DNA of 64,000 bases from assembly GCA_963715405.1 (NCBI GenBank), contig OY970239.1, forward strand, positions 430,481-494,480, read 5' to 3'. Source of the stretch: an uncultured bacterium. Lineage in GTDB: Bacteria; Actinomycetota; Thermoleophilia; Solirubrobacterales; 70-9. Positions 10,249 to 25,461 of this stretch are shown one piece after another; the stretch's first letter is position 1, and every line of letters starts with the position of its first letter. A program made the position numbers and the translations under genes. The notes beneath the pieces were generated by a model, which did not search any database, was not told where the DNA came from, and was given only the letters and a program-made list of their open reading frames with translations.

Positions 10249-11456
10249 CCTTCTCTCGGCTCCCAGCCAAGCGCGACGCAGATGCGCTTCCGCAGCCGCG
10301 CCGCCCCCGGGTAATTGGGGAGCGCCCGTTCGGCCCGTGCAACGAGCTCGAGGCCCTCGAAGGGGCGGCCGGCGACCAAGAGCTCCCTGGCTAGCGTGAG
10401 ACAGCTCTCCGGGGACACAGGGTCCGACGCCACCGCCTGCACCGCGTGGCTGAGTGCCCCTTCCCGGTTTTTTCGGGCAGCCAAGTCGCGAGACAGTGCA
10501 ACGTGGACTCTTGACGCAACGGTTTGCGCCAAAGGTGCGTCGAGACGCGCGAGCATCTGGAGCGACATCTCCGCCTTATTGATCTCGTCATCGGGCAGCG
10601 CCCGGCTGACCATCGCCTGGTAGCGCCGCATCATCGCAGCATCAAATGCGAGCCCGATGAGGCGGCGGTGTGAGTCGGGCAGAGACCACGCGTGCAGCGC
10701 ACTGGTCAGCGGCGAGCGCATGCGTTCCACGTGATTGGTCCATGCGAGCTCGAGCACAGCGCGGTCACGGTTTGCAATGCGCTCTCGGGAGGCCCTCACC
10801 GCGCCAGCCGGGCGGATGCGCTTGAAGTACAACGGACGGGGGACGTGGACGGCCGTGCCGGCGAGGATCAACGCCATGGCGTACTCGCATTCGACCGCAA
10901 AGCCCTGATGTCCGTCGACGGGAAAGCCGCCCACGGCCGCGAGGCACGATGTGCGGGTGACCCCGCGCCAAGGCATGCCCGGTGCCCCCTGGAGCAGGAA
11001 TGCCGTGACCTGATCGGCGATCGAGCCAGACGCGGGTAGTGGCATCGAATGCTGCGTAAGCTCGGTCGCTCCGAAACGGAACAGGTCACCGTAGGCGACC
11101 GAGGCCGCCGGGCGTGCCGCAAGCGCTTCAAGGAAGGCATCTACGTAGCGCGGGTCCCACACGTCGTCATGGGGCAGGATCGCGAAGTGGGAGGTGGCAA
11201 CGCGCTCGAGTTGAGCCCGAATGTTGGCGTCCCAGCCTAGCCGTGAGGGGTTGCGGTGGATAGCGATGCGCTGATCGGCCAAGAACGGCTCAAGCGCGGC
11301 GAGCGTGTCATCCGGCTCGCCGCTCCCGTCGCTCGGGTGAAGATCCACAGCGACCTCGACCTTGAGGTCACGATGTGTTTGGGCGAGGACCGACCGGACG
11401 GTCTCAGTCAGGAATGCCCCCGCCGCGTAGGCGGGGATACAGACGGTGACTGTCAA
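10245..11456 (-). CDS. Family-2 glycosyltransferase with C-terminal helical-repeat (TPR-like) region
   Basis: GT2 N-terminus LTVTVCIPAYAAGAFLTETVRSVLAQTHRDLKVEVAVD...ILPHDDVW. A TTG start at 11456 overlaps the upstream stop (TTGA). The longer track ORF start would run through the upstream gene. Confidence 0.75.
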   Translation of the reverse strand: MTVTVCIPAYAAGAFLTETVRSVLAQTHRDLKVEVAVDLHPSDGSGEPDDTLAALEPFLADQRIAIHRNPSRLGWDANIRAQLERVATSHFAILPHDDVWDPRYVDAFLEALAARPAASVAYGDLFRFGATELTQHSMPLPASGSIADQVTAFLLQGAPGMPWRGVTRTSCLAAVGGFPVDGHQGFAVECEYAMALILAGTAVHVPRPLYFKRIRPAGAVRASRERIANRDRAVLELAWTNHVERMRSPLTSALHAWSLPDSHRRLIGLAFDAAMMRRYQAMVSRALPDDEINKAEMSLQMLARLDAPLAQTVASRVHVALSRDLAARKNREGALSHAVQAVASDPVSPESCLTLARELLVAGRPFEGLELVARAERALPNYPGAARLRKRICVALGWEPREG

Positions 11457-12670
11457 GCCGATTCCTCCCGACCGAGAATGCGGGCAGCTGCGATCGAAGC
11501 GAAGTACGGGGCAAGCGTCAGCTTCCCGGTGTCGATCGAGTGATAACCACCGCGGCTGAACACGCCTACGGCGTGGCGCTCGTGGAGCTGGCTTCCCCGG
11601 TTCTCGATCCCACTCGCACCCCACGCGGCGATATAGCCCTGAGTCGGCCGCCAAGGCCGGGACGGATCGAGAGCCTCAGCGGCGCCGGGCATCAGTCGCC
11701 GTAGGGCGGTGAGAAACCCATCAAGGAGCCGTTCATAGTCGTGATCGCGGTCTTCGACGTCCCGGCTCGGAGCGAGGGCGAATTCCTGGCTGAGGAGGCC
11801 GGTCGGGTACCAGGAGATGTATGTTGCCTCGGGGTAGCGGACCGTGTCGCCGTACGGCCCGAGCATGAACGTCACCGAGGGAAATTCGGGCGCACCGCCC
11901 GGGTCGGCGGTTCGGAAGCCCAACTTGTACCGGTAGGCCATCGAATGCGATGTCTCCAGTCCCAGCGACGCGTCCACGGCCAGCCGGCCCTCCCACGTGG
12001 CGTTGACGACGGCGTCGTAACGCTCGTGGCGTTGGCATAACCCTCGACGCGGACGGACCTCGATTCCGCCCCCCCCGTGGTCTTCAACTCCGGTGATCTC
12101 CATGCCCATCCGCATTGTCACCCGAGTCGCTGCTCGCAGCGACTCGCGCAGGGCGTGACAGAGAGGCCCGGGGTCGATCGCTCGCTCACGGGTCGTGAAG
12201 GCCGCCTGCACGCGCCGGCGATCGAATATCTCGGCGTGAGCCCCAGGGTCCAACTGTCGCCACAGCGGTCCGGGTGGGCCGACGTAGCCGCCGCCGCCCG
12301 CTTCGGACCGATCAAGCATCGTCTCAACTCGTGAGAAATGCGCCCGGACCTGCTCAACGCTGAGCAAGCTGTCCGGCGGGACAGCGTAGATGAACGGGTC
12401 CGAGATCAGGTCCTGCCAGCGTGAGCTGCTGACCCAACGCTCCAGCAGCGGAACGAAGCTCAGGGCGCCATCAAGCATCAATTTCGCCGTACGACCAGTC
12501 GAGTCCAAACCGTAGACAAGACCGAGATGCAGTTTGCCCTCGCAGTTGAGGCTCGCCCCCGTCAGAGCCTCTGAAGCGCGATCGAACACCTCGACCTCGC
12601 AGCCCGCCTCGGCCAGCTCCAAGGCGACACAGGTGCCCGTGAGTCCGGCGCCGAGAACCGCAACTCTCAA
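11453..12670 (-). CDS. FAD-dependent oxidoreductase (DAO-like)
   Basis: Rossmann dinucleotide motif at the N-terminus ((M)RVAVLGAGLTGTCVALELAEAGCEVEVFD) with a TTG start at 12670. It is a paralogue of 14558..15769. Confidence 0.8.
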   Translation of the reverse strand: MRVAVLGAGLTGTCVALELAEAGCEVEVFDRASEALTGASLNCEGKLHLGLVYGLDSTGRTAKLMLDGALSFVPLLERWVSSSRWQDLISDPFIYAVPPDSLLSVEQVRAHFSRVETMLDRSEAGGGGYVGPPGPLWRQLDPGAHAEIFDRRRVQAAFTTRERAIDPGPLCHALRESLRAATRVTMRMGMEITGVEDHGGGGIEVRPRRGLCQRHERYDAVVNATWEGRLAVDASLGLETSHSMAYRYKLGFRTADPGGAPEFPSVTFMLGPYGDTVRYPEATYISWYPTGLLSQEFALAPSRDVEDRDHDYERLLDGFLTALRRLMPGAAEALDPSRPWRPTQGYIAAWGASGIENRGSQLHERHAVGVFSRGGYHSIDTGKLTLAPYFASIAAARILGREESA

Positions 12671-12965
12671 CGGTTGGACGGTTGTCGACGTTCACGACTC
12701 ACGGGCGGATCTTCGCATCGTAGGAACACAGGCCTCAGCTCCCTCGTGCCAGTGACCGTCGTGAACTCTTGCGGGTTCCACTCCGCGAGAGCTGGTAGAG
12801 CGGCGTCAGCCGCAGCGACCGACGCCCGCCCGGTAGCCCAAGGTCTGGCAGGACCGGGAGCAAATGCTTCCATGTGCGCTTCCATAGGCGCACAATCGCC
12901 GTCCATTGACCGAGCCCAGAACGAGAAAGTCTGTTGATAGCGGGGCTTTTCCCGATGGGCGCGGC

Positions 12966-13110
12966 GGGTTTCGAACCTTCGTCCTCTCGCGTGTGAAGCG
13001 GTGGCGCCTCAGGCACGGATAGGCGTGGTCCGGCGCCTCGGAGTGTGCGGGATGTGCGCGGATGCTTTCGGATATGGGCACCCGAACTCTGCCGGTGCCC
13101 AACGAGGCCG
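12966..13110 (-). repeat. tRNA-Val 3'-half-derived att-like repeat, copy A (full 145-bp form)
   Basis: On the minus strand it reads GGGCACC-11nt-GGTGCCC hairpin (13086-13110), then GGATG/GGATA repeats at 13060, 13070 and 13080 (+ coordinates), then CGCTTCACACGCGAGAGGACGAAGGTTCGAAACCCGCCGCGCCCA. That last part is an anticodon loop through acceptor end of a tRNA-Val. No 5' tRNA half is present. Confidence 0.85.
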
Positions 13111-13161
13111 CCGGCGTTGCCCTCCGGTCTCGACTCGGCTGTTATAGCGTCGTCGTCGCCG

Positions 13162-13569
13162 ATGCCAACCGCCGCCAGCCTTCGATCAGACGGGCCAATT
13201 CTGTTTCCGATCCCACGCAGCGAGGATGCGCGGGGGGCGTTATTGCCGATCGAGTTCTCAACGCTCCCCTTCCAGCCGCGCCGGACGTTCGTGGTCACGG
13301 ACGTCCCGCCGGGGACCACGCGCGGCGGCCACGCCCACGCACGAGGGCAGCAGCTCTTGGTCTGCGTCGCCGGCGCCGTCCGAGTTGAGCTTCGCAGCGG
13401 CACGGCTCCAGAGACGGTCACGCTCGATCGGGCCGATCGAGGGCTACTTCTCGAAGCGGGCGTCTGGGCGGCTCAAACCTATGAGGAGGCTGGAACCGTG
13501 CTGCTCGTCCTGGCGAGCGAACCCTTTGCTGACGTTTCCTACCTGAACGATCCGCCCGTCAGCGACTGA
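13162..13569 (+). CDS. Cupin, WxcM/FdtA-like sugar 3,4-ketoisomerase family
   Basis: LFPIPRSEDARGALLPIEF...FVVTDVPPGTTRGGHAHARGQQLLVCVAGAVRVEL...VWAAQTYEE matches the FdtA/WxcM-like domain pattern. The ATG at 13162 is chosen because the upstream part of the track ORF lies inside repeat A. Confidence 0.7.
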   Translation: MPTAASLRSDGPILFPIPRSEDARGALLPIEFSTLPFQPRRTFVVTDVPPGTTRGGHAHARGQQLLVCVAGAVRVELRSGTAPETVTLDRADRGLLLEAGVWAAQTYEEAGTVLLVLASEPFADVSYLNDPPVSD

Positions 13570-13580
13570 GCCCGCCCTCG

Positions 13581-14564
13581 GTGACCGAACCCGACGTGAC
13601 GATCTGTATTCCGGCCTGGCAGGCGGAGAGCTTCATCGACCGGACCCTCAGCTGCGCGCGGAGCCAGACGCACTCGAGGCTTCGCATTGTCGTCTCGGTA
13701 GATCAGAGCGACGACGCCACCGTCGCGATCTGCCGCGCGCACGCGGGCGAGGACTCGCGAATCGAGGTCTTCGCCCAGCCAGAGCGCCTCGGGTGGTCGG
13801 AGAACGCGAATTTCCTTCTCGACCGGGTTGAGACCGAGTTCTATTTTCTCTACTTCCACGACGACATCATTGAACCGACGTACACCGAACGGCTCCGCCG
13901 CGCCCTGATGGATCACCCGGAGGCCAAGTCGGCCCATTGCGATCTCCAGCACTTCGGCATGATGGACCATGTCGCTCCGGGCGCCACCTACTCCGGCTCG
14001 GCCGACCGGCGCATGGTCCAGTTCCTGGTCGCGCCCGTGAAGGGCGCTCCGCTGCGAAGCATGACGCGGACCGAGCTCGTTGGCCGTGGGCTCTGCTTTC
14101 CGGCGATTGGCGAAAACGGCCCCTGGCGCTGCTATCCGTTCGTCCTTCAGCTGTTCGGCGAGGGGAACGCCGTGGGTGTGCCGGAGATCCTCTATCGGCG
14201 CTGGATGCGCGAAGGCAGCATGACCAAGAGCTGGCAGCCGAGGGAGATGGCGACGCTGATTGAGGGCCAGCGCGAGAGCGCTCGACTTTGCCTGCAGATA
14301 CTCGAGCGCTACGGTGATCCGGCGGAGCGGGAGCTGACTCGATTTTGCGTCTACGTGTTCCACCTGACGCCCATCCGTACCCGGGAGCTGAACATGCCCC
14401 GCCAGCCACCGGTAGACCCGGCCGTGATCTCTCCGGCGTTCGCCGATTGCGCCGATTACGGCCTTCCCGATTCCCTCGTCGAGCAGCCTCCCGACTTCCA
14501 GGAATGGGTACGGGCCGCATACCGGGAGCTCCAGCGCCTCGAGCGCGCACAAGTGGCGTGCTGA
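13581..14564 (+). CDS. Family-2 glycosyltransferase
   Basis: VTICIPAWQAESFIDRTLSCARSQTHSRLRIVVSVDQSDD...YFHDDIIEP. It is a paralogue of the N-terminal domain of 10245..11456. GTG start. Confidence 0.8.
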   Translation: MTEPDVTICIPAWQAESFIDRTLSCARSQTHSRLRIVVSVDQSDDATVAICRAHAGEDSRIEVFAQPERLGWSENANFLLDRVETEFYFLYFHDDIIEPTYTERLRRALMDHPEAKSAHCDLQHFGMMDHVAPGATYSGSADRRMVQFLVAPVKGAPLRSMTRTELVGRGLCFPAIGENGPWRCYPFVLQLFGEGNAVGVPEILYRRWMREGSMTKSWQPREMATLIEGQRESARLCLQILERYGDPAERELTRFCVYVFHLTPIRTRELNMPRQPPVDPAVISPAFADCADYGLPDSLVEQPPDFQEWVRAAYRELQRLERAQVAC

Positions 14565-15769
14565 ACGTCGCAGTTCTCGGAGCCGGAATCATGGGCGGCT
14601 CGACCGCACTGTGCCTTGCTCGCCGGGGCGTCAAGGTAACGCTGTTCGACGCGGCCGAGCGCCCGTTCGAAGGTGCGAGCCGCTGGAATGAAGGAAAAAT
14701 CCATCTCGGTCATCTCTACGCGGCTGATCCATCGCTTGAGACGGCTCGGCGCCTGCTTCCGGGTGGCCTCGCCTTCAGGCGGATCACGGAGAGTTTGATC
14801 GGCTGCTCGCTCGACGGTCAGATCACGCCTGAGGACGACATCTATCTCGTGCATCGCCACTCGGTCCTCGGGGCTGACGAAACCGGTCGCTACCTACGCG
14901 CCGTGACGGCCCTTGTCCGCGATGACTCCGAGGCTCGTCACTACCTCGCCGACGCCAGCAGCGCTCGGGTTACGGCGTTGACTCGACGCGAGCTTTGCGC
15001 CGATTACGACTCGTCGACCGTGGTGGCGGGCTTCCGAGTACCTGAGCGATCGGTTTCAACAGCATGGGTGGCCGACCGATTCGTCGATGCCCTCAACTCC
15101 ACCCCAGGCATCGAGCTAGCGATGCGAACGCCGGTCCGGGGGGTTCGAAGGTGCGGCCTCGCGCCCGATGATCCGCTGCTGGTGGACACGGCGTCTGACC
15201 CTGCGGGCCCTTTCGCGTCTGTCGTCAACTGCCTCTGGGAAAACAGACTGCTGATCGATATTGGAATGGGGCTGCCCGTCCCCGCGGAGCGCACGCACCG
15301 CTTTCGCATGTCGGCATTCGTGCGCACCCGCGTGCCGGTGTCGCTGTCGAGCGCAGTGCTGGTCACCGGCCCGTTCGGTGACGTCAAGAACTACAACGGA
15401 CGGAACCTCTACCTGTCTTGGTATCCAGCCGGACTGGTTGCCGAGGGCGTAAATGTGGGGCCACCAAGGCTGCCCGCACTTACCCCGGGTGATAAGGGCC
15501 GGATCGCAGGCGAGACGATCGCCCGGCTCGGGGCGATGATCTCCGGGATTGCCGAGGTTGAAGACGCCGCCGAAGAAATCGATGTGCGAGGGGGTTGGGT
15601 CTATGCGTCCGGTCGCGGCGCATTGGCGCAGCGCAGCTCAACCCTGCACCGGCGCGACCGAATCGGGATTCGTCGCTCGGGGTCGTATATATCAGTCGAC
15701 ACGGGCAAGTACTCGATCGCGCCATGGCTGGCCGAGGAGATCGCCCGGTTCCTCCAGCGATCCGCTTGA
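14558..15769 (+). CDS. FAD-dependent oxidoreductase (DAO-like)
   Basis: VLNVAVLGAGIMGGSTALCLARRGVKVTLFD Rossmann motif. A GTG at 14558 overlaps the GT2 stop by 7 nt. It is a paralogue of 11453..12670. Confidence 0.8.
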   Translation: MLNVAVLGAGIMGGSTALCLARRGVKVTLFDAAERPFEGASRWNEGKIHLGHLYAADPSLETARRLLPGGLAFRRITESLIGCSLDGQITPEDDIYLVHRHSVLGADETGRYLRAVTALVRDDSEARHYLADASSARVTALTRRELCADYDSSTVVAGFRVPERSVSTAWVADRFVDALNSTPGIELAMRTPVRGVRRCGLAPDDPLLVDTASDPAGPFASVVNCLWENRLLIDIGMGLPVPAERTHRFRMSAFVRTRVPVSLSSAVLVTGPFGDVKNYNGRNLYLSWYPAGLVAEGVNVGPPRLPALTPGDKGRIAGETIARLGAMISGIAEVEDAAEEIDVRGGWVYASGRGALAQRSSTLHRRDRIGIRRSGSYISVDTGKYSIAPWLAEEIARFLQRSA

Positions 15770-15821
15770 ACGCCAGGAAGGCTTGCGATAATGGCCGCGC
15801 AGTATCTCGCAACGGCAGTGA

Positions 15822-15866
15822 TGGGCGCGGCGGGTTTCGAACCTGCGACCTCTCGCGTGTGAAGCG
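15822..15866 (-). repeat. tRNA-Val 3'-half-derived att-like repeat, copy B (core plus 3' half only)
   Basis: The minus strand reads CGCTTCACACGCGAGAGGTCGCAGGTTCGAAACCCGCCGCGCCCA. Similarity to copies A, C and D stops 3 nt past the anticodon loop, and the flank beyond that is unrelated. Confidence 0.85.
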
Positions 15867-15905
15867 TCGAGAGATCCCGCTAGGGCAGCCGATTCGTGAC
15901 TGGGA

Positions 15906-15949
15906 GGCCTAATCCGGTTCGGTTCGATTGGCCTCGATTAGGTTCGGTT
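15906..15949. repeat. Two imperfect direct repeats (GGCCT-N5/6-GGTTCGGTT) flanking copy B
   Basis: ggcctaatccggttcggtt (15906-15924) and ggcctcgattaggttcggtt (15930-15949). They also contain the inverted pair CCTAATC (15908-15914) / GATTAGG (15936-15942). Confidence 0.5.
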
Positions 15950-16278
15950 TGGGCAGACGAGGCATTGTCTGCCCGTTGGGGTGGCGCCATGGACAGAGAT
16001 GAAATGGTCAGGGGTACTCGAGGGCTGCGAGAGACGGTTGATGCCAACCGGCAAATCAAGGGACGGTCCCCGAGCTGCTCGGCCAATTCGGTGATTGCCG
16101 AGCTTCGCCCCGACGTCGCGACCTACCTTGAAACATCGCCAGCCCGTACCCGATTCGGCGGAAGCGAAGGCGCGGGGTCGGCTCGCAGCCAGCCTTCGCC
16201 GACCGAAAGTGATTGGGCACCAGCGGTGCCCCAGCTGCGCCCATCCGTTCTTGGCCTGTTCGAGGTCGTGTCCGAGCG

Positions 16279-16902
16279 TCACCCATCCATCACGGACTCG
16301 ACGAGAGTGCGGACCGCTTCGACCTCTTCGTCGCGAACGCGATGCTCACCGGGCCCCGCAATCAGGAGGTCCACCTCCGCGCCCGCCGCCCGCAGCGCCT
16401 GGGCGGCCACGCGGACGTCCTCGGGGTCGACCCAGCTATCCGCCTCGGCGCCGGTCAGGAGCGCGCGGACACCGGCGAGCGAGCCGCCGGAGGGAAACCG
16501 CACGTCGTCGGCGCCGATCAGGCAGCCGCAGAGCGAGACCACAGCGCCGAGCGGGCGCGGCGCTGTCGCGAGGAAGTCGAGGGCGATGCACGCGCCCTGC
16601 GAGAAGCCGCCGAGGATGATCCGCTCGGGCGGCACGCCCCGGGCGGCGAGGTCGTCGAGCGCGGAGCCGATCTGGCCGTGCGCGCGGCCAAGCCCCGGCT
16701 CGTTGACCGACCGCGGGTCGAAGTATCGCTGGGGGTACCACGAGTTCTTTGCGGCAGCCGGCGCGACGAGCGCGAGGCCGGGCAATCCCAGGCGTGCCGC
16801 GAGTCGCTCGGGCGCCTCGGGCCTCTCGCCGCGACCGTGCAAGAACACGAGCGTCGCCGCCGCCTCCTCGGGGCTGGTTGTCACCGGCGCATCGTACGGC
16901 AC
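16279..16902 (-). CDS. Alpha/beta hydrolase, phospholipase/carboxylesterase family
   Basis: TLVFLHGRGE...IILGGFSQGACIALDF (GxSxG nucleophile elbow)...GPGEHRV. The start is uncertain; a GTG at 16902 is proposed because the longer track ORF overlaps the divergent ATP-grasp gene. Confidence 0.7.
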   Translation of the reverse strand: MPYDAPVTTSPEEAAATLVFLHGRGERPEAPERLAARLGLPGLALVAPAAAKNSWYPQRYFDPRSVNEPGLGRAHGQIGSALDDLAARGVPPERIILGGFSQGACIALDFLATAPRPLGAVVSLCGCLIGADDVRFPSGGSLAGVRALLTGAEADSWVDPEDVRVAAQALRAAGAEVDLLIAGPGEHRVRDEEVEAVRTLVESVMDG

Positions 16903-16947
16903 CCGAAGCGGCCCCGGACCAAGTGTGGGAATGTGTCCCTTGAGGAA

Positions 16948-18156
16948 ATGCCCGTGACCAGCGACCGCCCACCGATTCCCGCCATCGTGTTCGGCGGCGA
17001 CGTCACGGGCCTCGCGGCCGTGCGGGCACTCGGGCGCGCCGGCGTGACGGTGCTCGTGCCGCAGCCCGCCCATCCGTTAGTCCGCGGGTCGCGCTGGCAC
17101 CGACCGCTCCACGGCGCACCGCCCGAGGGGAGCGCCGGCGGCGAGCTCGCGGCCTGGCTTGGCGGGCTCCCCTACGGACGCAGCGTCCTCTTCCCGTGCT
17201 CCGATTCGTGGGCGACGACGGTCGCCGCCCTGCCGGCCGCGGTCACTGCCGCCCACGTCCCGGTCGCGCCGCGGAACGCCGCGCTCGAGCGCCTCGTCGA
17301 CAAGGCGCGCTTCGCCGACGCCGTCGCGGAGCTCGGCGTCCCGGCCCCGCGGACCGTGCGAGCGCAAACGGCGGCGGACCTCGCCGCGCTCTCCGACGAG
17401 GAACTCAGCGGCTCGTTCCTGAAGCCCGTCGACTCACAGGCGTTCTCGGCGCGGCACGGCGTGAAGGGGCTTCGCCCTGCCGACCGGGCCGAGGCTGCCG
17501 CGCTGCTCGCCGCGCTAGCCGCCGAGGGGCTCGAGGTGGTCGTGCAGGAGCTCATCCCCGGCCCGCCGGACGCGCACCTCTTCGTCGACGGCTACGTCGA
17601 TCGCGCCGGTACCCTGCGCGCCTGCCTCGCGCGCCGGCGTCTGCGGATGTTCCCGCCGGGGCTCGGCAACAGCACCCTCTCGGAGACGATCATGCTCGAA
17701 GACGCCGCCGATGCGGTCGCCGCGGTCGAGCGGCTTTTCGCCGGGATCGGCTTCACTGGCCTCTTCGACGCGGAGTTCAAGCGGGACGAGCGGGACGGGG
17801 TCGCGAAGATCCTCGAGGTGAACGCGCGGCCGTGGTGGCAGCTCGGCCTCGCAGCCGCGGCCGGCCTAGACCTCGTGCTCCTCGCGTACCGCGACGCCGC
17901 AGGGGGCGAACCGCCACCCTCCGAGCGCTACCGGGTCGGGGTGCGCTGGGTCCACCCGGTTCCCGACGCGCGCGCGTGGTGGCGGTCGCGCGGTAGGGGC
18001 GGCAATCCCGGACTACCGGTCCGAGCGTGGCTCGGACCGGGCAACGCTGTCTGGAACCGGGACGACCCGCGGCCGCTGCTTGCGGAGCTCGCGAGGATGC
18101 TGAAGCGGCTCCGCAGGCATTACAGGCAGCGTGACTCGAATCCAGCTCCGCCCTGA
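16948..18156 (+). CDS. ATP-grasp domain protein (carboxylate-amine ligase type)
   Basis: From MPVTSDRPPIPAIVFGGDVTGLAAVRALGRAGVTVLV; ATP-grasp core ...FLKPVDSQ...VVQELIPG...FDAEFKRDERDGVAKILEVNARPW. The upstream 245 codons of the track ORF are antisense to the esterase gene. Confidence 0.75.
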   Translation: MPVTSDRPPIPAIVFGGDVTGLAAVRALGRAGVTVLVPQPAHPLVRGSRWHRPLHGAPPEGSAGGELAAWLGGLPYGRSVLFPCSDSWATTVAALPAAVTAAHVPVAPRNAALERLVDKARFADAVAELGVPAPRTVRAQTAADLAALSDEELSGSFLKPVDSQAFSARHGVKGLRPADRAEAAALLAALAAEGLEVVVQELIPGPPDAHLFVDGYVDRAGTLRACLARRRLRMFPPGLGNSTLSETIMLEDAADAVAAVERLFAGIGFTGLFDAEFKRDERDGVAKILEVNARPWWQLGLAAAAGLDLVLLAYRDAAGGEPPPSERYRVGVRWVHPVPDARAWWRSRGRGGNPGLPVRAWLGPGNAVWNRDDPRPLLAELARMLKRLRRHYRQRDSNPAPP

Positions 18157-18440
18157 CGCCGTCGCAGATCAAGCGGGCTATTTGGCGTTTCGATGTATCC
18201 GGAAGCGAACTTGCCGTCTTGCCAGAGCCGCTCCAAGCATGCCGCGAGGATCGTTATCCCAGTCGGGCTACAGAAGACCGTCGAAGTCATGTCGAGGTGG
18301 AGACGTAGTTCGCGTGCCTCCGATCCGGCTTTCATCACGGGTTCAAGTTGGTCGAGAACCTTGCCTACATGAGCAAACGTGAGCCTGTTCGGCGCCTTGC
18401 AAACCATCGTTTCCATGGTCTCTGGGTCGCGCTTAGCCAT
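18120..18440 (-). CDS. Hypothetical protein (weak STAS-like pattern)
   Basis: 106-aa ORF. LHLDMTSTVFCSPTGITILAACLERL resembles the STAS / anti-sigma-antagonist core. Its 3' end overlaps the ATP-grasp 3' end by 37 nt. Confidence 0.35.
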   Translation of the reverse strand: MAKRDPETMETMVCKAPNRLTFAHVGKVLDQLEPVMKAGSEARELRLHLDMTSTVFCSPTGITILAACLERLWQDGKFASGYIETPNSPLDLRRRQGGAGFESRCL

Positions 18441-18540
18441 TCAGTGGCACGGTTGCGGCTGGGCAAACACGGGCAGACTCCGCCTGAGGCCATGCCCTGA
18501 ACTCACGCTAATCCTCCTCGAGACCGCTTACCTAAGCCAT

Positions 18541-18685
18541 GGGGCGCGGCGGGTTTCGAACCTGCGGCCTCTCGCGTGTGAAGCGGTGGTGCCTCAGGCA
18601 CGGATAGGCGTCGATGGGGCCATCGGATGCATGCGGATGTACGCGGATGCCCTTGGATGCGGGCACCAGAATGGCGCGGGTGCCC
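18541..18685 (-). repeat. tRNA-Val 3'-half-derived att-like repeat, copy C (full 145-bp form)
   Basis: tRNA 3' half at 18541-18590. GGATG at 18625, 18635, 18645 and 18655 (exact 10-bp phasing), plus GGATA at 18602. Hairpin GGGCACC (18661-18667) / GGTGCCC (18679-18685) with an 11-nt loop. Confidence 0.85.
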
Positions 18686-18824
18686 GATCGCCGAGACGGC
18701 TGTAACTGCCCCGACTGTCGGAGGATTCCAGGGCCTTTCCCGATGCTGGTCGTCAATTCAGCAGGAACGAAGGCAAGGACACCTGGAGTCCCTGGAATGA
18801 GCTGATCGTTGCCGATCAGGAGGG

Positions 18825-19712
18825 CTACGCGCCGCGGGTGATGGCGGCGATCGTGCGAGCAGCTGCCATCATGTCGCTCTCCAGCATCACGGCGCCTAGC
18901 CGGGCTGCGATGTCTGCGCTGGCGCCGGCACCGGCGATCGTAAGGAGGGTTTCGGTGCCCAGCGGGCGGAGCGCCTCAACGGCGTCTTCGAACGGGCCGG
19001 GTGCCAGCGCGGCGAGCACCAGGACGTCTGGTTGGGTTGCGGACACTGTGCTGGGCAGTTCGTTCGCGGGTGTGTCCTGCCCGACGTAGACGATGCGCCA
19101 GCCCTGACGCCAGAGGATCAGGCCGAAGCAGATGAGACCGATGTCGTGCTGTTCGCCCGACGGACACGCCAGGACGGCGGTGCGCCCCGACCCTGACGAC
19201 CAGCCGCGAGCAAGCGCCAACAGTCTGGCCCGGAGGAGGGTCGAGGCAAAATGCTCCTGGGCGACGCTGATCTCTCCTCGCTCCCAGTCGTGGCCGATCT
19301 CTCGAAGACAGGGCAAGATGGTGCGTGTCAAGACCTCCTCTAGCGAGTTGAGAGCGAAGGCGCGGTCAAGGGTTTCGTGGACCGCGCCCTCGTCGAACAG
19401 GGCCAGCTGATCCCTTAGCTCCAACGCCGCTCCGTCTGCGCCGGCCCTTCCGGAGGCTCGACCGACCTGCATCGGCGTTTCCTCGGCGAGTGCCAACTGT
19501 GCGGCTTCGGCAGCGGCAAGGCCGCGGGCAAGGTGGCCCTTCATGGCCCAAACGCGAGCGACGTCCGCCAGCGAATAGAGCCGGAAGTTTCCTTCCGACC
19601 GACGCGGCTTGAGGAGGCCGTAGCGCTTCTCCCAGGCGCGGAGGAGCGCGGGCTCTACGTCCACGCGGCGGCTCAGTTCGCCGATCCGAAGCTGGGGGTT
19701 GGTCTCGGGCAT
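18825..19712 (-). CDS. carH: CarH/LitR-type MerR-family regulator with B12-binding domain (putative AdoCbl photoreceptor)
   Basis: MerR HTH (LRIGELSRRVDVEPALLRAWEKRYGLLKPRRSEGNFRLYS). Wx9EH motif (WERGEISVAQEH). ExHxxG B12 lower-ligand motif (GEQHDIG) within a Rossmann-like C-terminal domain. Confidence 0.85.
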   Translation of the reverse strand: MPETNPQLRIGELSRRVDVEPALLRAWEKRYGLLKPRRSEGNFRLYSLADVARVWAMKGHLARGLAAAEAAQLALAEETPMQVGRASGRAGADGAALELRDQLALFDEGAVHETLDRAFALNSLEEVLTRTILPCLREIGHDWERGEISVAQEHFASTLLRARLLALARGWSSGSGRTAVLACPSGEQHDIGLICFGLILWRQGWRIVYVGQDTPANELPSTVSATQPDVLVLAALAPGPFEDAVEALRPLGTETLLTIAGAGASADIAARLGAVMLESDMMAAARTIAAITRGA

Positions 19713-19783
19713 AAACAGAATGTAGACAGTCTCTGCTGCGTTGTTGCCTCCCCCCGTCGTTACGCGGGTTATTCCACTCTGCT

Positions 19784-19816
19784 AATCTCGACAAAAGCTA
19801 GACAGAACCTAGACAA
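19784..19816 (+). promoter_or_regulatory. Three tandem 11-bp direct repeats, candidate CarH operator
   Basis: aatctcgacaa / aagctagacag / aacctagacaa. Each fits nAnnTnnACAn. They lie in the 120-bp divergent carH/sigma intergenic region and end 16 nt before the sigma ATG. Confidence 0.6.
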
Positions 19817-19832
19817 GTATGGAGATATCGGG

Positions 19833-20393
19833 ATGGATTCCAAGCAGGTTGGACTTCGCTGCACCGAGTCGAGCGACGAGGCCCTCTGGGCAGCGGTGCA
19901 GGAAGGCAACGAGGTTGCCTTCGAACACTTCGTCACGCGGCACCGGCCTCTCGCCCTTCGGATCGCCGGCAGAGTCTGCGGAGCCCATGCAGAGGACGCG
20001 GTGCAAGCCGCATTCCTCGCGGCTTGGCGTGGCCGCATGGCGTTCAATCCCGCCAAGGGGAGTCCCAAGGCATGGGTGATGACCGTGGTGCGCAACCGCG
20101 CCGTGGACGTCTTTCGATCGGTCTGCCGTCGTCCCGAGAGGCTCGAGGCCGACGTCGCCGACCACCAAGAGGGTTCCGTGAGGACAGACGAGCTGGTGGA
20201 ACAGCGCGAAACCGCGAGGAATCTCCGGGCGGCGATGGCGAATCTCCCCGAAAGCCAGCGCACGGTCTTGGCGTTGGGCTACTTCTCCGAGCTCAGTCAG
20301 TCGGAGATTGCGGGCACACTCGGACTACCCCTAGGGACGGTCAAGGGGCGGACCCGGCTGGGCCTCGAGAAGCTGGCCGGCGCCGCACTGTGA
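19833..20393 (+). CDS. ECF-type sigma-70 family RNA polymerase sigma factor (LitS-like position)
   Basis: From MDSKQVGLRC...; region 2 (FEHFVTRHRPLALRIA...AFLAAWR) and region 4 (QRTVLALGYFSELSQSEIAGTLGLPLGTVKGRTRLGLEKL). The upstream part of the track ORF overlaps carH in antisense. Confidence 0.85.
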   Translation: MDSKQVGLRCTESSDEALWAAVQEGNEVAFEHFVTRHRPLALRIAGRVCGAHAEDAVQAAFLAAWRGRMAFNPAKGSPKAWVMTVVRNRAVDVFRSVCRRPERLEADVADHQEGSVRTDELVEQRETARNLRAAMANLPESQRTVLALGYFSELSQSEIAGTLGLPLGTVKGRTRLGLEKLAGAAL

Positions 20394-20394
20394 C

Positions 20395-20438
20395 CGTGTG
20401 AAGCGGTACCGCGCCAGGCACGGTAAGCGTCATTCAGC
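20395..20438 (-). repeat. Partial att-like repeat, copy E (arm-proximal part only, no tRNA 3' half)
   Basis: cgtgtgaagcggtaccgcgccaggcacggtaagcgtc aligns with the anticodon-loop-to-arm part of copies A, C and D (cgtgtgaagcggtgNNNcctcaggcacggatRggcgt). Similarity begins exactly at the anticodon-loop position, right after the sigma stop codon. Confidence 0.6.
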
Positions 20439-20645
20439 GCGTTGAATGTGACCTACCCAGCGTGGGCCGGACGCTGCCCAGCGGTCGACCGCTGCGAGTT
20501 CGTCGCTCAAGTGCTCGAGCGAATCGAGGGCCGCCACGTTCTGCTCGAGCTGATGGACGCTCGAAGCCCCGATCAGCGTCGAGGTTACGCGCGGGTCGCG
20601 AAGCGTCCACGCCAGCGCCAGCTGGGCCAGGAGTGGAACTGCCGA
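20430..20645 (-). pseudogene. C-terminal remnant of an aldo/keto reductase
   Basis: The minus strand translates to LAQLALAWTLRDPRVTSTLIGASSVHQLEQNVAALDSLEHLSDELAAVDRW..., a typical AKR C-terminus. No N-terminal 250 aa and no start codon were found, and it is not in the ORF track. Confidence 0.55.
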
Positions 20646-20717
20646 GCAGGGCGGCTGGGTACGGCCGCCGGAGCTGCCCGCTAGGGGGCTGGTTATAGCA
20701 CCCGGTATGGTCGCGGA

Positions 20718-20897
20718 ATGCCGAAGACCAACACCGAGAAAGCTCGGGTCCTGATACTGATTGCGGCGTTCGTGTCGTTCCTCCTCTCCGTAAGCCTCTT
20801 CTTCCTGACCGACGACAAGACCGAGGGCATCTTCGTAGGTCTATGGGTCCCCTCGATCCTGGCTCTCGGCGCTCTGATCATTCCCCCGCGAAGGTAA
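20718..20897 (+). CDS. Small membrane protein (59 aa, below ORF-track cutoff)
   Basis: ATG..TAA frame giving MPKTNTEKARVLILIAAFVSFLLSVSLFFLTDDKTEGIFVGLWVPSILALGALIIPPRR. It has two hydrophobic helices and G/C-biased third codon positions. Confidence 0.45.
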   Translation: MPKTNTEKARVLILIAAFVSFLLSVSLFFLTDDKTEGIFVGLWVPSILALGALIIPPRR

Positions 20898-20901
20898 TGC
20901 C

Positions 20902-21063
20902 GTGACCGTTGCGATTTTCGTGTTCGGCGTCGTCGTAACCCTCTTCGTCGCGGCCGCGTGTGCGTTGATCGTCGAGGGGATCCGAATCGACAAGCAGGGG
21001 CGTGAGCAGGACGAGGCGTTGCAGAGTGCCGAGCGCGCCCCGGCGGCCCGACCAGAAATCTAG
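20902..21063 (+). CDS. Small membrane protein (53 aa, below ORF-track cutoff)
   Basis: A GTG start 5 nt after the previous stop gives VTVAIFVFGVVVTLFVAAACALIVEGIRIDKQGREQDEALQSAERAPAARPEI. One TM helix and a charged tail. Confidence 0.4.
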   Translation: MTVAIFVFGVVVTLFVAAACALIVEGIRIDKQGREQDEALQSAERAPAARPEI

Positions 21064-21103
21064 CCGGCTCGTTCAGGCTGGCTACTGGTGCCCCGCGGCG
21101 GCA

Positions 21104-21248
21104 TGGGCGCGGCGGGTTTCGAACCTGCGACCTCTCGCGTGTGAAGCGGTGCTCCCTCAGGCACGGATGGGCGTGGATTGGACAGGGCGGATGCCCTTGG
21201 ATGCCTGCGGATGCCCGTGGATGTGGCACCAGAACCGCGCGGGTGCCC
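21104..21248 (-). repeat. tRNA-Val 3'-half-derived att-like repeat, copy D (full 145-bp form)
   Basis: tRNA 3' half at 21104-21150. GGATG at 21189, 21199, 21209 and 21219 (10-bp phasing), plus GGATG at 21165 and GGATT at 21175. Hairpin GGCACC (21225-21230) / GGTGCC (21242-21247) with an 11-nt loop. Confidence 0.85.
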
Positions 21249-21278
21249 AACCACGTTGCCGCGGGGTACGATCGACGA

Positions 21279-21731
21279 ATGACCGCGCCATCGGCCGAGC
21301 TCACGCTCGAGATGCAGCGGGTTCTCGCCGGGGCCCCCTCGGCCGTGTTCGGTGCTTTCAGTGATTCGAGCATGTTGATGAGGTGGTGGGGACCTGAGGG
21401 ATTCACCACCCCGAGCCTGGAGTTCGAGCCGCGCGTCGGAGGGGGCTACCGGATCGAGATGCAGCCACCGGAGGCCGATCCGTTCTATCTGACCGGGGAG
21501 TTCCGTGAAGTCGACCCACCTGCGCGCCTCGCATACACGTTCGTGTGGGAGGATCCCGACCCCGACGACGTCGAGACCCTGGTCACCTTGTCGTTCCGGA
21601 ACCTCGGTGAGTCGACCGAGGTGGCGCTTACGCAAAGCCCGTTCAAGACCGAGGCGCGTCGTGCGCTGCACCGTGACGGTTGGACGGACAGCTTCGACAA
21701 GCTCGAGAGGCTCATCACAGGACAGGCATAG
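21279..21731 (+). CDS. SRPBCC superfamily protein (AHSA1/Aha1-like domain)
   Basis: MTAPSAELTLEMQRVLAGAPSAVFGAFSD...MRWWGPEGFTTP...GGGYRIEMQPP...LTGEFREVDPPARLAYTFVWE...GWTDSFDKLE. A TACGAT box sits 6 nt before the ATG, suggesting a leaderless mRNA. The upstream part of the track ORF lies in repeat D. Confidence 0.8.
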   Translation: MTAPSAELTLEMQRVLAGAPSAVFGAFSDSSMLMRWWGPEGFTTPSLEFEPRVGGGYRIEMQPPEADPFYLTGEFREVDPPARLAYTFVWEDPDPDDVETLVTLSFRNLGESTEVALTQSPFKTEARRALHRDGWTDSFDKLERLITGQA

Positions 21732-21777
21732 CCAGCCCGCGGGACGCGGTTCGCGGGGCGTCCCAGTTGCCGAGCCA

Positions 21778-21849
21778 TGGACGCGGCTGGTTTCGAACCA
21801 GCGACCTCTCGCGTGTGAAGCGAGCGCTCTCCCACTGAGCTACGCGTCC
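21778..21849 (-). tRNA. tRNA-Val (anticodon CAC)
   Basis: Full cloverleaf read by hand. Acceptor GGACGCG/CGCGTCC; D arm GCTC-AGTGGGA-GAGC; anticodon arm CTCGC-TTCACAC-GCGAG; variable AGGTC; T arm GCTGG-TTCGAAA-CCAGC; discriminator A. No CCA is encoded. Confidence 0.9.
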
Positions 21850-22284
21850 GGCGAAGGCGATGATATGGCAGTCCTATGCGGGTTCCCCCGATCTGCGTCT
21901 TGCCACACGGGGCCTTGAGCCGCAGGAAATGCAGGAGTTCACTGCCCATATACATCAGAAGCCGGCGAAGCTGGTGGAGGCGAGCCTCGAAGGACTCTCC
22001 GAAGTGAGATGTCGTGTGAGGTCCCTCTGAGTACTTGACGTCAATGCGAACATGTGTTCGTGGGAGGTCGACGGAAGCCCCTCGGACCCGTTCGCCCCTT
22101 CTGCACCCGCTGCGGCGGAAGCGGGAAGGCGCGATTGGCGGAGACTGACGGGCGACCTGGGCGTTGTCCTCGCTGCCGTGGGACGGGGTACGAGCCGAAG
22201 GCTCCTCCTGTGGGTTGACAAGTGCCGGCGGCTTTGGCACGATTTTCTCGTCCGGGGGGAGAATCGATCAGGAGGGGACTTACC

Positions 22285-22944
22285 TTGCTTGCGAAGCTCC
22301 GTGGTCAGCTCACATACGCGAACGTCATGGCCTCGGTCGCCGTGTTCCTGGCTCTAGGTGGAGGCGCTTACGCGCTCACCCAGATCGATCCCGATAGCGT
22401 CAAGTCGAAGCACATCGCCGCCGGCCAGGTGAAGCAGGCCGATCTGGCAAGGCCCCAGGATTGGATCGAGTTCGCAAACGAGGACTTCCTTGGGGCCGAC
22501 TCTGTCACGTGCCGCACTCCAGGCGGAGACCTCGTGATTTATGAGAATGATTGGGCGAACGACGACCCTCAGACCTTCAACACGGCGGGCTACTACCGCG
22601 ACCCTTACGGCTCGGTCCACCTGAAGGGCCGCGTGACGAGGGGCGATTGTCCTGATCCACCAGCAGTCGCGTTTGCGCAGGCGGGGTCCAGCGGCCAAGC
22701 CGCAGACGGAGACTCGATCGCCACCCTCCCGCCGGGGTACCGGCCAGCTAAGGAAAACGTGTTCGGAAAATCCATTGACGAGCGCCCGCCTGGCGGCGCG
22801 AGTACGCGGGTCAACGAGCGTGGCGATGTGCACGTCACCCCGGAAGGCGTGATCGAGGCGACCACGCCTAGCGACCGGGCTTGGGTCTCGCTCGACGGGA
22901 TTACCTTCCGCTGTGCCCCCTCGAGCCAGAACGGGTGCCCCTAA
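22285..22944 (+). CDS. Secreted or membrane-anchored hypothetical protein
   Basis: TTG start 7 nt after GGAGGGG. The N-terminus (L)LAKLRGQLTYANVMASVAVFLALGGGAYA looks like a signal/anchor. The C-terminal Cys pair suggests an extracytoplasmic location. Confidence 0.6.
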   Translation: MLAKLRGQLTYANVMASVAVFLALGGGAYALTQIDPDSVKSKHIAAGQVKQADLARPQDWIEFANEDFLGADSVTCRTPGGDLVIYENDWANDDPQTFNTAGYYRDPYGSVHLKGRVTRGDCPDPPAVAFAQAGSSGQAADGDSIATLPPGYRPAKENVFGKSIDERPPGGASTRVNERGDVHVTPEGVIEATTPSDRAWVSLDGITFRCAPSSQNGCP

Positions 22945-23046
22945 CAAAGCGAGCGCCCCAGCGATCAGACCGGGCGCTCTTCCCGGCTGAGAAGGCCGGG
23001 ATGGGTTCGCGCAAGGTAGCGCGATCCGCGAGATACTGCGCAGGCG

Positions 23047-23445
23047 ATGCCGCAGGAGAACGCAGAACTGGCCAAGCGCTTCTACGAAGCCTTCAATCGG
23101 GAAGGACTTGATGCGATCAGCGACGAGCACTTCCACGATTACGTTGTGGTCGTCGAGCCGCCAGAGATGCCGGACGCCGCCACCACGCAAGGGTTGGAAG
23201 CGGCTCGCGCCGGTCTCGCCAGGTTCGTTGACCTTTTCGAGTACGTGGGGGTAACGATTGACGGGGTTGTGGCGAAGGGCGACCGAACGTTCACCACGAT
23301 CGATGTCTTCGCTACCGGCAAGAGCGGCGTGGAAACCGAGTCCACCCGATTCGACATCGCGACCTGGCGTGACGGGCGAATGACCCGGCTGGACTTGTTC
23401 TTCACCCGCGAATTCGCGGATGCGGCGTTCGCAGATCCGGAGTAG
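23047..23445 (+). CDS. NTF2-like (SnoaL-like) family protein, copy 1
   Basis: 132 aa. MPQENAELAKRFYEAFN... is a typical SnoaL-like N-terminus. It is the first of three tandem paralogues. Confidence 0.7.
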   Translation: MPQENAELAKRFYEAFNREGLDAISDEHFHDYVVVVEPPEMPDAATTQGLEAARAGLARFVDLFEYVGVTIDGVVAKGDRTFTTIDVFATGKSGVETESTRFDIATWRDGRMTRLDLFFTREFADAAFADPE

Positions 23446-23448
23446 GCG

Positions 23449-23850
23449 ATGTCGCAGGAGAACGTGGAAGTGATGCAGACGCTTTTCGAGCGCCTCAACC
23501 GGGACGGCGTTCAACCCGAAGAGCTTTGGCACCCCGATGGGACGCTCACCAACTTTCGTGAGTCTCCGATTCCAGGCCCCTACCACGGCTACGAGGGACT
23601 TCGGAGGTGGCGCGAAGACCTCTTTGAGGTGCTCAAAGAGGGCCGATTTGACGTCGAATCCCTTACCGACGCCGATGAAACGAATGCTGTCGTCGCGAAA
23701 GTCCATCTGCGCGGACGCGCGAGGCACACCGACATTGAGGTGGACGCGCCATTTTCCATCGTTGCTTGGCTTCGGGACGGGCGTCTCTCCCGCTCTGAGT
23801 CCTTCACTGACCATGCCGAGGCCCTCGAAGCCGCTGGGCTGTCGGAGTAG
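23449..23850 (+). CDS. NTF2-like (SnoaL-like) family protein, copy 2
   Basis: 133 aa, MSQENVEVMQTLFERLN ... EALEAAGLSE. It starts 3 nt after the previous stop. Confidence 0.7.
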   Translation: MSQENVEVMQTLFERLNRDGVQPEELWHPDGTLTNFRESPIPGPYHGYEGLRRWREDLFEVLKEGRFDVESLTDADETNAVVAKVHLRGRARHTDIEVDAPFSIVAWLRDGRLSRSESFTDHAEALEAAGLSE

Positions 23851-23853
23851 GCG

Positions 23854-24261
23854 ATGTCGCAGGAGAATGTGGAGATCCTGAGCGGGGGCTTTGACGCGTT
23901 CGCCCGTGGAGACATCGACTCCGTGCTCGACCGCTTGGACCCGGACGTGGCCTGGAGCGCGGCGATCGCTCCGATGCTCGGTGTGGAGACGGTGCATGGG
24001 CGGGAAGCCATGCGCCGATTCCTGACCCACGATCTGTTCGACGGCTTCGACCAGTTCGGGGCCGAACCGCTCTCCATCGAAGACCTCGGCGGGGAATACG
24101 TCCTGGTGATGGTCCGCTATACGGGCAGGGGGCAAAGCAGCGGGATCGAGATGGATATGACGTCTGCATCGCTCTATCGGTTGCGTGATGGCAAGACCGT
24201 GACCATGCGGGACTACCCCACGAAGGCAGAAGCCCTCGAAGCCGCCGGGCTCTCGGAGTAG
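23854..24261 (+). CDS. NTF2-like (SnoaL-like) family protein, copy 3
   Basis: 135 aa, MSQENVEILSGGFDAFARGD ... EALEAAGLSE. It has the same junction sequence as copy 2. Confidence 0.7.
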   Translation: MSQENVEILSGGFDAFARGDIDSVLDRLDPDVAWSAAIAPMLGVETVHGREAMRRFLTHDLFDGFDQFGAEPLSIEDLGGEYVLVMVRYTGRGQSSGIEMDMTSASLYRLRDGKTVTMRDYPTKAEALEAAGLSE

Positions 24262-24270
24262 GTTCCTGCG

Positions 24271-24807: not shown

Positions 24808-24910
24808 ATAGCTCTTGAGGTCTCTAAGCCATGAGCTTGCTCGTCGGCGTACAGTTTGAACCCCAAGCTCGACCGAGGGGGAGAGCACCCTGTCAGTTGC
24901 GCGAAAGTCA

Positions 24911-25213: not shown

Positions 25214-25216
25214 GAC

Positions 25217-25435: not shown

Positions 25436-25461
25436 CTAGTCAAGTCAAGTAATCTTCCTGT

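Follow-up and report, generated by a model that had tools for sequence, protein, structure and literature searches.

Several described systems resemble parts of the locus analysed here. Elements that integrate into tRNA genes, such as pSAM2, SLP1 and the cis-mobilizable elements (CIMEs) of the ICESt1/ICESt3 type, carry a block of identity that spans the tRNA from its anticodon loop to its 3' end, and their insertion regenerates the tRNA and displaces the old half. CIMEs are att-flanked modules without recombination genes that can be served in trans. Integrons and clusters of attC sites lacking integron-integrases (CALINs) are characterized by a single insertion point and small, mostly single-gene cassettes, and the pdif modules of Acinetobacter plasmids are small modules bounded by XerC/D dif-type sites and moved by an enzyme encoded elsewhere. 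The ssrA-linked islands of Dehalococcoides are reportedly much larger than the cassettes described below and have site-specific recombinase genes of their own. In Prochlorococcus, tRNA-proximal islands grow, at the end beside the tRNA, by repeated site-specific integration of tycheposons, with partial tRNA copies separating the elements and scattered through the island; each tycheposon has its own integrase and often replication genes, and active elements account for a few percent of the island DNA (10.1101/2020.12.28.424599). Here we analyse a 64-kb stretch (the window) of an uncultured bacterium of the Solirubrobacterales (GenBank assembly GCA_963715405.1, contig OY970239.1, positions 430,481 to 494,480), in which partial copies of a tRNA-Val(CAC) gene are repeated on its 3' side. 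We consider it probable that small gene cassettes lacking an integrase, served in trans and joined at the anticodon loop, have accreted here into an array.

The single tRNA in the window is an intact tRNA-Val(CAC) on the minus strand at 21778-21849 (ARAGORN; Rfam tRNA, 70.6 bits), which heads the array as an attB/attL-type site. A 42-nt probe spanning the anticodon loop to the CCA end, searched with at most 3 mismatches, gave five minus-strand matches, all in register: the tRNA itself and copies at 21104-21145, 18541-18582, 15822-15863 and 12956-12997. The chance expectation, estimated from 100 shuffles, was none. All four same-orientation copies reported in a preliminary description of this DNA, made from the sequence alone, were thus recovered at the positions and spacings given there, except that the last one starts at 12956 and not at 12966, which makes the last spacing 2866 and not 2856 bp. 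The base differences from the resident gene were likewise as described. The displaced copies have a T stem of GCAGG/CCCGC with an A-C mismatch and an acceptor strand of CGCGCCC (C70), and the resident tRNA-Val has GCTGG/CCAGC and CGCGTCC; the GAAGG T-stem variant is also real, and we assign it, as a correction, to the 12956 copy.

From these differences it had been proposed that the copies share a source other than the resident gene. This is correct in that a variant half exists, but the variant circulates in the lineage. We use L001 to L081 for the compared loci, mostly from related genomes; the GCAGG/CCCGC half is also present in L020, L027, L032 and L035, and in L075 the resident tRNA-Val(CAC) itself (17858-17929) has this T stem with its A-C mismatch. 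The variant half is therefore a circulating allele and not a dead end, and because a resident gene carries it, the mismatched stem seems to be tolerated in a working tRNA-Val gene. In the window tRNA-Val, a compensated A3:T70 pair takes the place of the G3:C70 pair of the lineage, and T70 halves elsewhere are displaced copies in L013 and L015. The 3' half of the resident tRNA-Val, from the anticodon loop onward, is itself part of the first cassette; homology with L081 starts inside this gene, at CGC-TTCACAC.

The tRNA fragment is only one component of a larger composite unit. On their 5' side, three of the copies (21104, 18541 and 12956) have about 100 further nucleotides in common, so the unit of about 145 nt that had been proposed for all copies holds for these three and fails for the 15822 copy, which shares the tRNA part only. 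To describe the unit, we built a profile from 96 distinct full units. Its length is ~150-175 nt, and it comprises a palindrome, phased iterons, a conserved junction and the tRNA from its anticodon loop through to its 3' end; the part preceding the tRNA sequence, a P-type arm of about 110 nt, is referred to as the family-1 arm. The palindrome, (T)GGGCACCAG-N7-CTGGTGCCC(G), has 9-bp arms, most of its paired positions show the consensus pair in at least 90% of the 96 units, and its spacer is 7 nt long in 93 of them. There is almost no covariation, meaning that it is conserved as sequence. It is followed by three or four tandem 10-bp CATCC iterons, (C)ACATCCGCG, with successive ATCC motifs at a spacing of exactly 10 nt (163 cases). 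Palindrome and loop are separated by either 78-79 or 88-89 nt, a bimodal distribution whose gap equals one iteron, or one helical turn. After the iterons comes a conserved GACGCCCATCCGTGCCTGAGG-nnn-CACCGC, and then the tRNA from CGC-TTCACAC to its 3' end. This motif-specific conservation, together with the helical phasing, points to a site of protein-DNA assembly; neutral scars would lose both.

An RNA identity for the unit found no support. An Rfam search (E <= 1) of window positions 12000-27000 returned only the tRNA and the signal recognition particle (SRP) RNA, and a known RNA family was rejected on this result; a tRNA-like fold of the whole unit was also rejected, as variability is highest at those positions whose pairing with the acceptor strand such a fold would require. 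As a separate observation, ARAGORN calls a 'tRNA-Ala(TGC)' at L025 4773-4857 that is actually a family-1 unit, composed of the arm and the tRNA-Val 3' half, and annotation pipelines likely repeat this false call on family-1 units.

To establish how widely the unit occurs, we used a junction-pattern scan with one genome per species. The unit was found in 36 eight-kb tiles from 21 metagenome-assembled genome (MAG) assemblies labelled Solirubrobacterales, Thermoleophilia or Actinomycetes, many of the contigs having several matches, and a metagenome scan found it on 34 soil contigs. An intact tRNA-Val(CAC) heads the array in all eight tRNA-bearing genome tiles and in each context locus obtained later. 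The array copies lie downstream of it in the same orientation, with few exceptions such as one inverted half in L021. Between consecutive units we measured 87 cassettes, with a median length of 1325 bp (range 354-7041 bp) and a single gene in 46 of them. Gene orientation is unbiased (57 sense, 66 antisense), and the cargo is diverse, with 82 Pfam families among 109 proteins; SnoaL-like proteins are the most frequent (15), followed by beta-propellers, methyltransferases, hydrolases and SRPBCC proteins. None of the 109 proteins is of an integration, replication, packaging or transfer type. A phage or plasmid origin of the unit was rejected, given that two unit patterns had no matches in IMG/VR contigs and blastn found none in phage and plasmid collections. 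The canonical 3' half does match one viral contig, L071, which has an unrelated arm and eight open reading frames (ORFs) without a Pfam match.

The position at which cassettes are joined can be read from the ends of the repeated sequences. The roughly 180 profile hits comprise about 98 full units, ~35 copies of the half only, ~12 intact tRNAs, and fragments; the hits are bimodal with few intermediates, and the half-only copies start at the anticodon stem-loop. These copies do have arms, which belong to at least three other conserved arm families, and the sequence common to every arm family begins at TTCACAC. The clearest case is the cassette carrying an AHSA1 gene. Window positions 21100-21822, covering the 3' half, the AHSA1 body and the first unit of the array (unit A), are 98.2% identical over 724 bp to L081 9890-10613, and positions 21103-21849 are 97.5% identical to L014, at loci where core genes among the same three genomes are only 74-86% identical (window and L081: dnaX 85.6%, MMPL 77.4%). 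As far as CCTGAGG, the arm of unit A is about 99% identical to the corresponding arms in L081 and L014. This cassette opens the array in the window and in L014, where it is fused directly to the tRNA 5' half; in L081 a DUF6790 cassette precedes it, and a family-1 arm is joined to it at the identical nucleotide. In all three genomes the homology starts at CGC-TTCACAC. This common start is the footprint of site-specific insertion or excision at the anticodon loop, and the comparison shows that a cassette consists of the 3' half, then the body, then the arm.

Two other placements were considered and rejected. First, the arm could have been part of the downstream gene, as suggested by L001, L034 and L024. 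We rejected this assignment for two reasons. That arm subfamily, 90-97% identical, stands beside many bodies that are unrelated to one another, and arms as a rule go with the body upstream: among near-identical arms, such linkage was seen in 4-6 independent cases, against only one of linkage downstream. Second, the palindrome was rejected as the crossover point, since cassette homology begins at the anticodon loop and the other arm families converge there. The proposal that these integrase-less modules are bounded by att cores, each extending from the anticodon loop to the end of the tRNA 3' half, is therefore confirmed by the comparative data, both by the convergence of the arm families at the loop and by the joint of the AHSA1 cassette there to either a tRNA half or an arm.

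Further cassettes are also shared between genomes. The ATP-grasp cassette (window 16274-18166) is 96.3% identical to L022, and the flank is only 76.5% identical to L020, which lies on the same contig as L022. Many more cassettes are shared at 92-98% between MAGs, in differing order and with differing neighbours. A module encoding an extracytoplasmic function (ECF) sigma factor and a CarH-like regulator has diverged to the level of core genes.

We propose the following mechanism. A cassette consists of the tRNA-Val sequence from the anticodon loop to the 3' end, a body of one to three genes, and a P-type arm; its genes would have their own promoters, as the unbiased gene orientation suggests. 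A tyrosine integrase would recombine the cassette site with the anticodon-loop region of the resident tRNA-Val or of any unit in the array; the incoming 3' half would complete the tRNA-Val, and the previous half would be pushed downstream, behind the arm of the new cassette. The palindrome and the phased iterons are the predicted binding sites for the integrase, an accessory protein, or both. The enzyme would be encoded outside the array, with an integrase family of 445-470 aa found at the tRNA-Val of relatives as the candidate. The best reading of these comparisons is that cassettes circulate among the genomes of soil Solirubrobacterales.

The preliminary description had recognised no recombinase in the window, and our searches agree with it. 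The window, the tiles and the metagenome contigs, about 452 kb in total, were searched with phmmer on six-frame ORFs, using approximate query sequences of XerD, lambda Int and gamma-delta resolvase, and with motif regular expressions; neither a tyrosine nor a serine recombinase was found. A Pfam scan of the window and cassette proteins found none either. A recombinase acting in cis was rejected on these results from approximate queries and motif patterns.

By walking from a conserved flank gene into other relatives, we found integrases of 445-470 aa with the Pfam architecture PF14659 + PF22022 + PF00589. In four genomes, L077-L080, they lie directly against the tRNA-Val(CAC), beside dnaX; three of these loci have an attR copy at a distance of 6.7-9 kb, which delimits elements of that size. 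A palindrome, (ATT)GGGCAC-NN-GTGCCC(AAT), occurs on both sides of the core in L078 and L079; in L077 it is in the P' arm, the P arm falling outside the locus, and no exact copy was found in L080. The GGGCAC/GTGCCC half-sites are the same as those of the family-1 unit palindrome, and the P arms of the integrase elements align with cassette arm families 2 and 3. These two families have the palindrome geometry of family 1 with a symmetric change, GGGCAGA-N11-TCTGCCC compared with GGGCACC-N11-GGTGCCC. Based on these shared att-arm motifs, the L077-L080 integrase family is the best candidate for the trans-acting enzyme. Also present on elements of this type are a reverse transcriptase of a group II intron (RVT_1 + GIIM) and insertion sequence transposases (L080 7542-8942 and 3967-5328; L077 14916-18104), neither of which is present in the cassette arrays.

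Among the systems outlined above, classical integration into tRNA genes and tandem accretion involving cis-mobilizable elements correspond to the mechanism proposed here. The arrays differ in scale and form: they are long, mostly single-gene, integrase-less arrays with a conserved composite site in each cassette, extending across a whole lineage. We found no description of a tRNA-Val cassette system in this lineage in the literature searched. The array has the identity block from the anticodon loop to the 3' end, with the intact gene at one end and a displaced half at the other, that is typical of tRNA-targeting elements; an integrase of its own beside the att end, as such elements have, is missing from the arrays and is seen in the relatives L077-L080 only. 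The cassettes are CIME-like in that they are att-flanked and lack recombination and transfer genes, with arms of families 2 and 3 alignable to the P arms of integrase elements and the GGGCAC palindrome shared by family 1. They differ from the known CIMEs and their integrative and conjugative element (ICE) relatives in that dozens of cassettes are present, mostly single-gene, with a median of 1.3 kb and none with an integrase, in 21 MAG assemblies, and in that each bears a conserved composite arm and the helper element is absent from the arrays.

The resemblance to tycheposon islands lies in the growth beside a tRNA, the partial tRNA copies and the adaptive cargo shared between genomes. Unlike tycheposons, the array elements have no integrase, nearly every cassette keeps a well-conserved att unit, and neither the 109 cassette proteins nor the phmmer scans contained the integrase and the replication or packaging genes usual in those elements. 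The tandem islands at the ssrA gene of Dehalococcoides are similar in being arranged at one small-RNA gene, each followed by a direct repeat of its 3' end. With regard to pdif modules, the palindrome GGGCACCAG-N7-CTGGTGCCC has a Xer-like geometry (9-bp arms and a 7-nt spacer), but its sequence, compared by eye with the dif consensus, does not resemble it, and the breakpoints lie at the tRNA loop and not at the palindrome.

The term 'integron-like logic', used in the preliminary description, is apt as logic but does not extend to the parts. Like integrons and CALINs, the arrays have a fixed insertion point, small and mostly single-gene cassettes that each bear a recombination site, and diverse cargo; like CALINs, they have no adjacent integrase. 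Unlike integrons, they have no IntI, no attI/Pc platform and no folded attC-type site; the genes on the 5' side encode SnoaL-like, DUF2510 and DUF6458 proteins, the SRP RNA and dnaX. The unit is conserved in sequence, consists of direct iterons and a tRNA fragment, and bears arm repeats like those of a phage attP, where attC is conserved in structure. The insertion point is the anticodon loop of a tRNA, and the genes lack the common orientation of promoterless integron cassettes (57 sense against 66 antisense). In the absence of IntI, attC and co-orientation, this is not an integron.

Several observations weigh against a trans-served array joined at the loop. Immediately 5' of CGC-TTCACAC, 7-8 nt vary among arms that are otherwise about 99% identical (GAGCACC at window 21149-21160, GACCAAG at L081 9930-9945 and CGCCACC at L014 6240-6255). 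In addition, two 3' halves in L027 (2921-2962 and 7261-7302) are hybrids, with GCAGG as the 5' strand and CCAGC as the 3' strand of the T stem, which indicates exchange or gene conversion between tRNA positions 51 and 63. A simple crossover at the anticodon loop predicts neither the hybrid stems nor the variable patch. An incoming half with C70 would mismatch the A3:T70 pair of the window tRNA-Val. With respect to the enzyme, no integrase was seen in any array-bearing locus, no family-1 array was seen in the integrase-bearing loci, and none of the top 120 integrase homologs could be traced to the source contig of the window. Finally, the ECF sigma/CarH-like module, at core-level identity to L072, makes part of the array old and fixed, and the window array is partly decayed, as seen in a truncated unit, a copy without an arm (copy C) and an inverted arm remnant.

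These last features bear on the choice, left undecided in the preliminary description, between a trans-served array and the fossil of repeated integrations. In its strict form the latter holds that the units are the inert scars of successive ordinary integrase-bearing elements, which have lost their integrases and most of their genes, with nothing moving today. The truncated unit at 20395-20449, armless copy C and the inverted remnant fit such a history, as do the fused cassette blocks of L023, where 14 nt of a unit remain, the core-like divergence of the ECF sigma/CarH-like module and the presence of integrase-bearing elements at the tRNA-Val site of relatives. On the other hand, not one integrase fragment was found in the about 452 kb that hold about 180 profile hits, the motifs and their phasing are retained across 96 units in 21 MAG assemblies, and cassettes including their non-coding arms are 96-98% identical at a core identity of 74-86%, at differing array positions. 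We therefore regard a purely fossil origin as unlikely and favour the trans-served array, because the unit motifs are conserved across 96 distinct copies and because genomes with only 74-86% identity in their core genes share cassettes at 92-98%, while accepting that the window array has partly decayed.

A distinctly less probable explanation is that the units, though of integrase origin, now act solely as portable patches of homology for RecA-dependent exchange after DNA uptake. The units are 75-97% identical over about 150 nt, their 3' halves are nearly identical, no recombinase is present in cis, and the hybrid T stems of L027 and the variable patch 5' of the loop look like gene-conversion mosaics. 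Homologous recombination alone leaves unexplained the selection on the palindrome, on iteron phasing and on the fixed 7-nt spacer, and why unrelated arm families all end at one nucleotide. Moreover, the joint of the AHSA1 cassette has no homology to the left of the loop, where two tRNA 5' halves stand against an arm, and RecA would need flanking homology on that side to place a crossover there. That the unit is instead a regulatory or RNA element (a promoter or operator, a terminator or insulator, or a tRNA-like 3' end) is very improbable: sequence-conserved palindromes with phased repeats are also typical of operators, and the start codons of several cassette genes are only about 20-100 nt away from a unit, but genes show no preferred orientation or position relative to it (57 sense, 66 antisense), there is no Rfam match, the palindrome is conserved by sequence and not by covariation, the bases 5' of the loop with which the acceptor strand would have to pair vary, and it would remain unexplained why units occur only behind tRNA-Val and why homology blocks break at the loop.

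Read from the tRNA outward, the window array is composed as follows. Cassette 1 encodes a 150-aa AHSA1/SRPBCC protein (21279-21731, plus strand; Pfam AHSA1, E = 1.6e-24) that is convergent with tRNA-Val. Unit A (21101-21278, minus strand; nhmmer 145 bits) consists of a family-1 arm and then a 3' half copy, with the palindrome at about 21238-21262 followed by the CATCC iterons; its arm belongs to cassette 1, and its 3' half copy (21104-21148) begins cassette 2. The body of cassette 2 (20450-21100), read from the sequence, contains small membrane-protein-like ORFs and a C-terminal aldo/keto reductase fragment, which at 20481-20631 is 89-93% identical to full-length aldo/keto reductase cassette genes in L019, L023 and L081. 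It is followed by the truncated unit, a fifth one (20395-20449, minus strand; profile search, 27 bits), in which the end of the arm and TTCACACG precede the divergence and which breaks directly at the stop codon of the ECF sigma gene. Since L072 has a unit with a complete 3' half at the equivalent place before its ECF sigma/CarH-like pair, the truncated unit is a decayed old site.

The ECF sigma factor (about 19833-20393, plus strand; Pfam, with the start inferred from the 186-aa L072 ortholog) and the CarH-like MerR-B12 regulator (18825-19712, minus strand; Pfam) form a module that is 81.5% identical to L072 14164-15736, a value equal to core-gene divergence, and it appears, from this comparison, to be old and vertically inherited. 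Both the window and L072 have this pair on the 3' side of the tRNA; in L079 (14295-15837) it lies between the tRNA and dnaX, which suggests an inversion or other rearrangement around the tRNA.

Unit B (18535-18711, minus strand; nhmmer 155 bits) has a family-1 arm and a 3' half copy with the variant T stem GCAGG/CCCGC and the end CCCC. Beyond it lies the body of the ATP-grasp cassette (15867-18534, plus strand; Pfam ATPgrasp_Ter, with the protein within ORF 16213-18156), inside which the profile search located the arm remnant, degenerate and inverted (16201-16253, plus strand). Copy C (15819-15866, minus strand; 51 bits) is a 3' half without a family-1 arm. The next body (13111-15818, plus strand; Pfam) encodes an FdtA/WxcM-like cupin (within ORF 13045-13569), a family 2 glycosyltransferase (GT2; 13581-14564) and a flavin adenine dinucleotide (FAD)-dependent oxidoreductase of the DAO type (within ORF 14345-15769). 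It ends at unit D (12950-13110, minus strand; nhmmer 145 bits), which has a family-1 arm and the GAAGG variant of the 3' half copy and is the last recognisable unit of the array. Pfam thus supports the cargo named in the preliminary description, refined to an FdtA cupin, GT2, DAO oxidoreductase, ATP-grasp, MerR-B12 CarH-like, ECF sigma and AHSA1/SRPBCC proteins, with the exception of the 'esterase' (ORF 15896-16957), which has no Pfam match.

Past unit D, the minus strand encodes another FAD oxidoreductase and GT2 (10245-12670; Pfam). The two GT2/FAD-oxidoreductase pairs thus flank unit D in opposite orientations, and at only 29-33% identity (blastp) they are distant paralogs that may represent alternative sugar-modification modules. 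No att site is recognisable past unit D (10245-12670). The genes of this second pair have a GC content at third codon positions (GC3) of 0.75-0.76, and the window has about 13 kb of extra DNA beyond unit D relative to L014 and L072; the pair is probably still inside the island. GC3 is 0.69-0.82 for genes between 10 and 25 kb and 0.81-0.92 for most other genes of the window.

On the 5' side of the tRNA, a large bacterial SRP RNA (25466-25736, plus strand; Rfam, 145.7 bits) is followed by dnaX-ybaB-recR (26670-29445), part of the core chromosome, and this block anchors the tRNA-Val locus in all relatives examined. The intervening 3.4 kb or so (21850-25216) encode a DUF2510 protein, three SnoaL-like paralogs in tandem (23047-24261) and a 240-aa ORF that resembles one of the cassette genes of L035, at a place where L072 and L073 have only an Inhibitor_I36 gene. 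No att unit was found on this 5' side, although SnoaL is the commonest cassette cargo.

Two further features of the cassettes were observed. A cassette gene rich in internal tandem repeats is common to five loci at 85-90% identity (L001 1372-3711, L030 1-1425, L024 7083-8000, L036 2281-3735 and L041 3063-3747); its self-similar BLAST matches are staggered at offsets of roughly 165 nt, and the L036 ORF has DUF5122 beta-propeller repeats (Pfam). In addition, a motif, GCGAGATACTGCGC(N3-5)GATG, recurs just upstream of several cassette start codons and also 15-25 nt after some 3' half copies (window 23028-23049 and, on the minus strand, 15784-15810; L010, L011, L023 and L039). It looks like a -10 box (GATACT) of transcripts with short leaders or none.

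A broader reading, possible but somewhat less likely than not to hold in full, is that uncultured soil Solirubrobacterales with small genomes (~2.2-2.9 Mb) run a tRNA-anchored, attP-style counterpart of the integron that is independent of it. It would comprise hundreds of different self-expressed cassettes, mostly single-gene and each with its composite site, and an integrase dedicated to them, its gene lying outside the array in the chromosome or on a transient helper, would insert, excise and reorder them at the tRNA-Val(CAC) loop. The result would be a communal gene pool actively exchanged between species.

If the cassettes are moved in trans, they would represent a second route, besides integrons, by which single-gene cassettes come to be arrayed at one site of a chromosome, a route that combines a tRNA gene with an att site of the phage type. 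The analysis yields a concrete site-enzyme pair, the ~150-nt unit and, as the candidate enzyme, the L077-L080 integrase family. Island-finding software that needs an integrase is expected to miss such arrays altogether. Movement in trans would also explain how abundant, uncultured soil Actinomycetota with small genomes exchange accessory genes, among them those for SnoaL-like and SRPBCC proteins, methyltransferases, hydrolases and glycosyltransferases.

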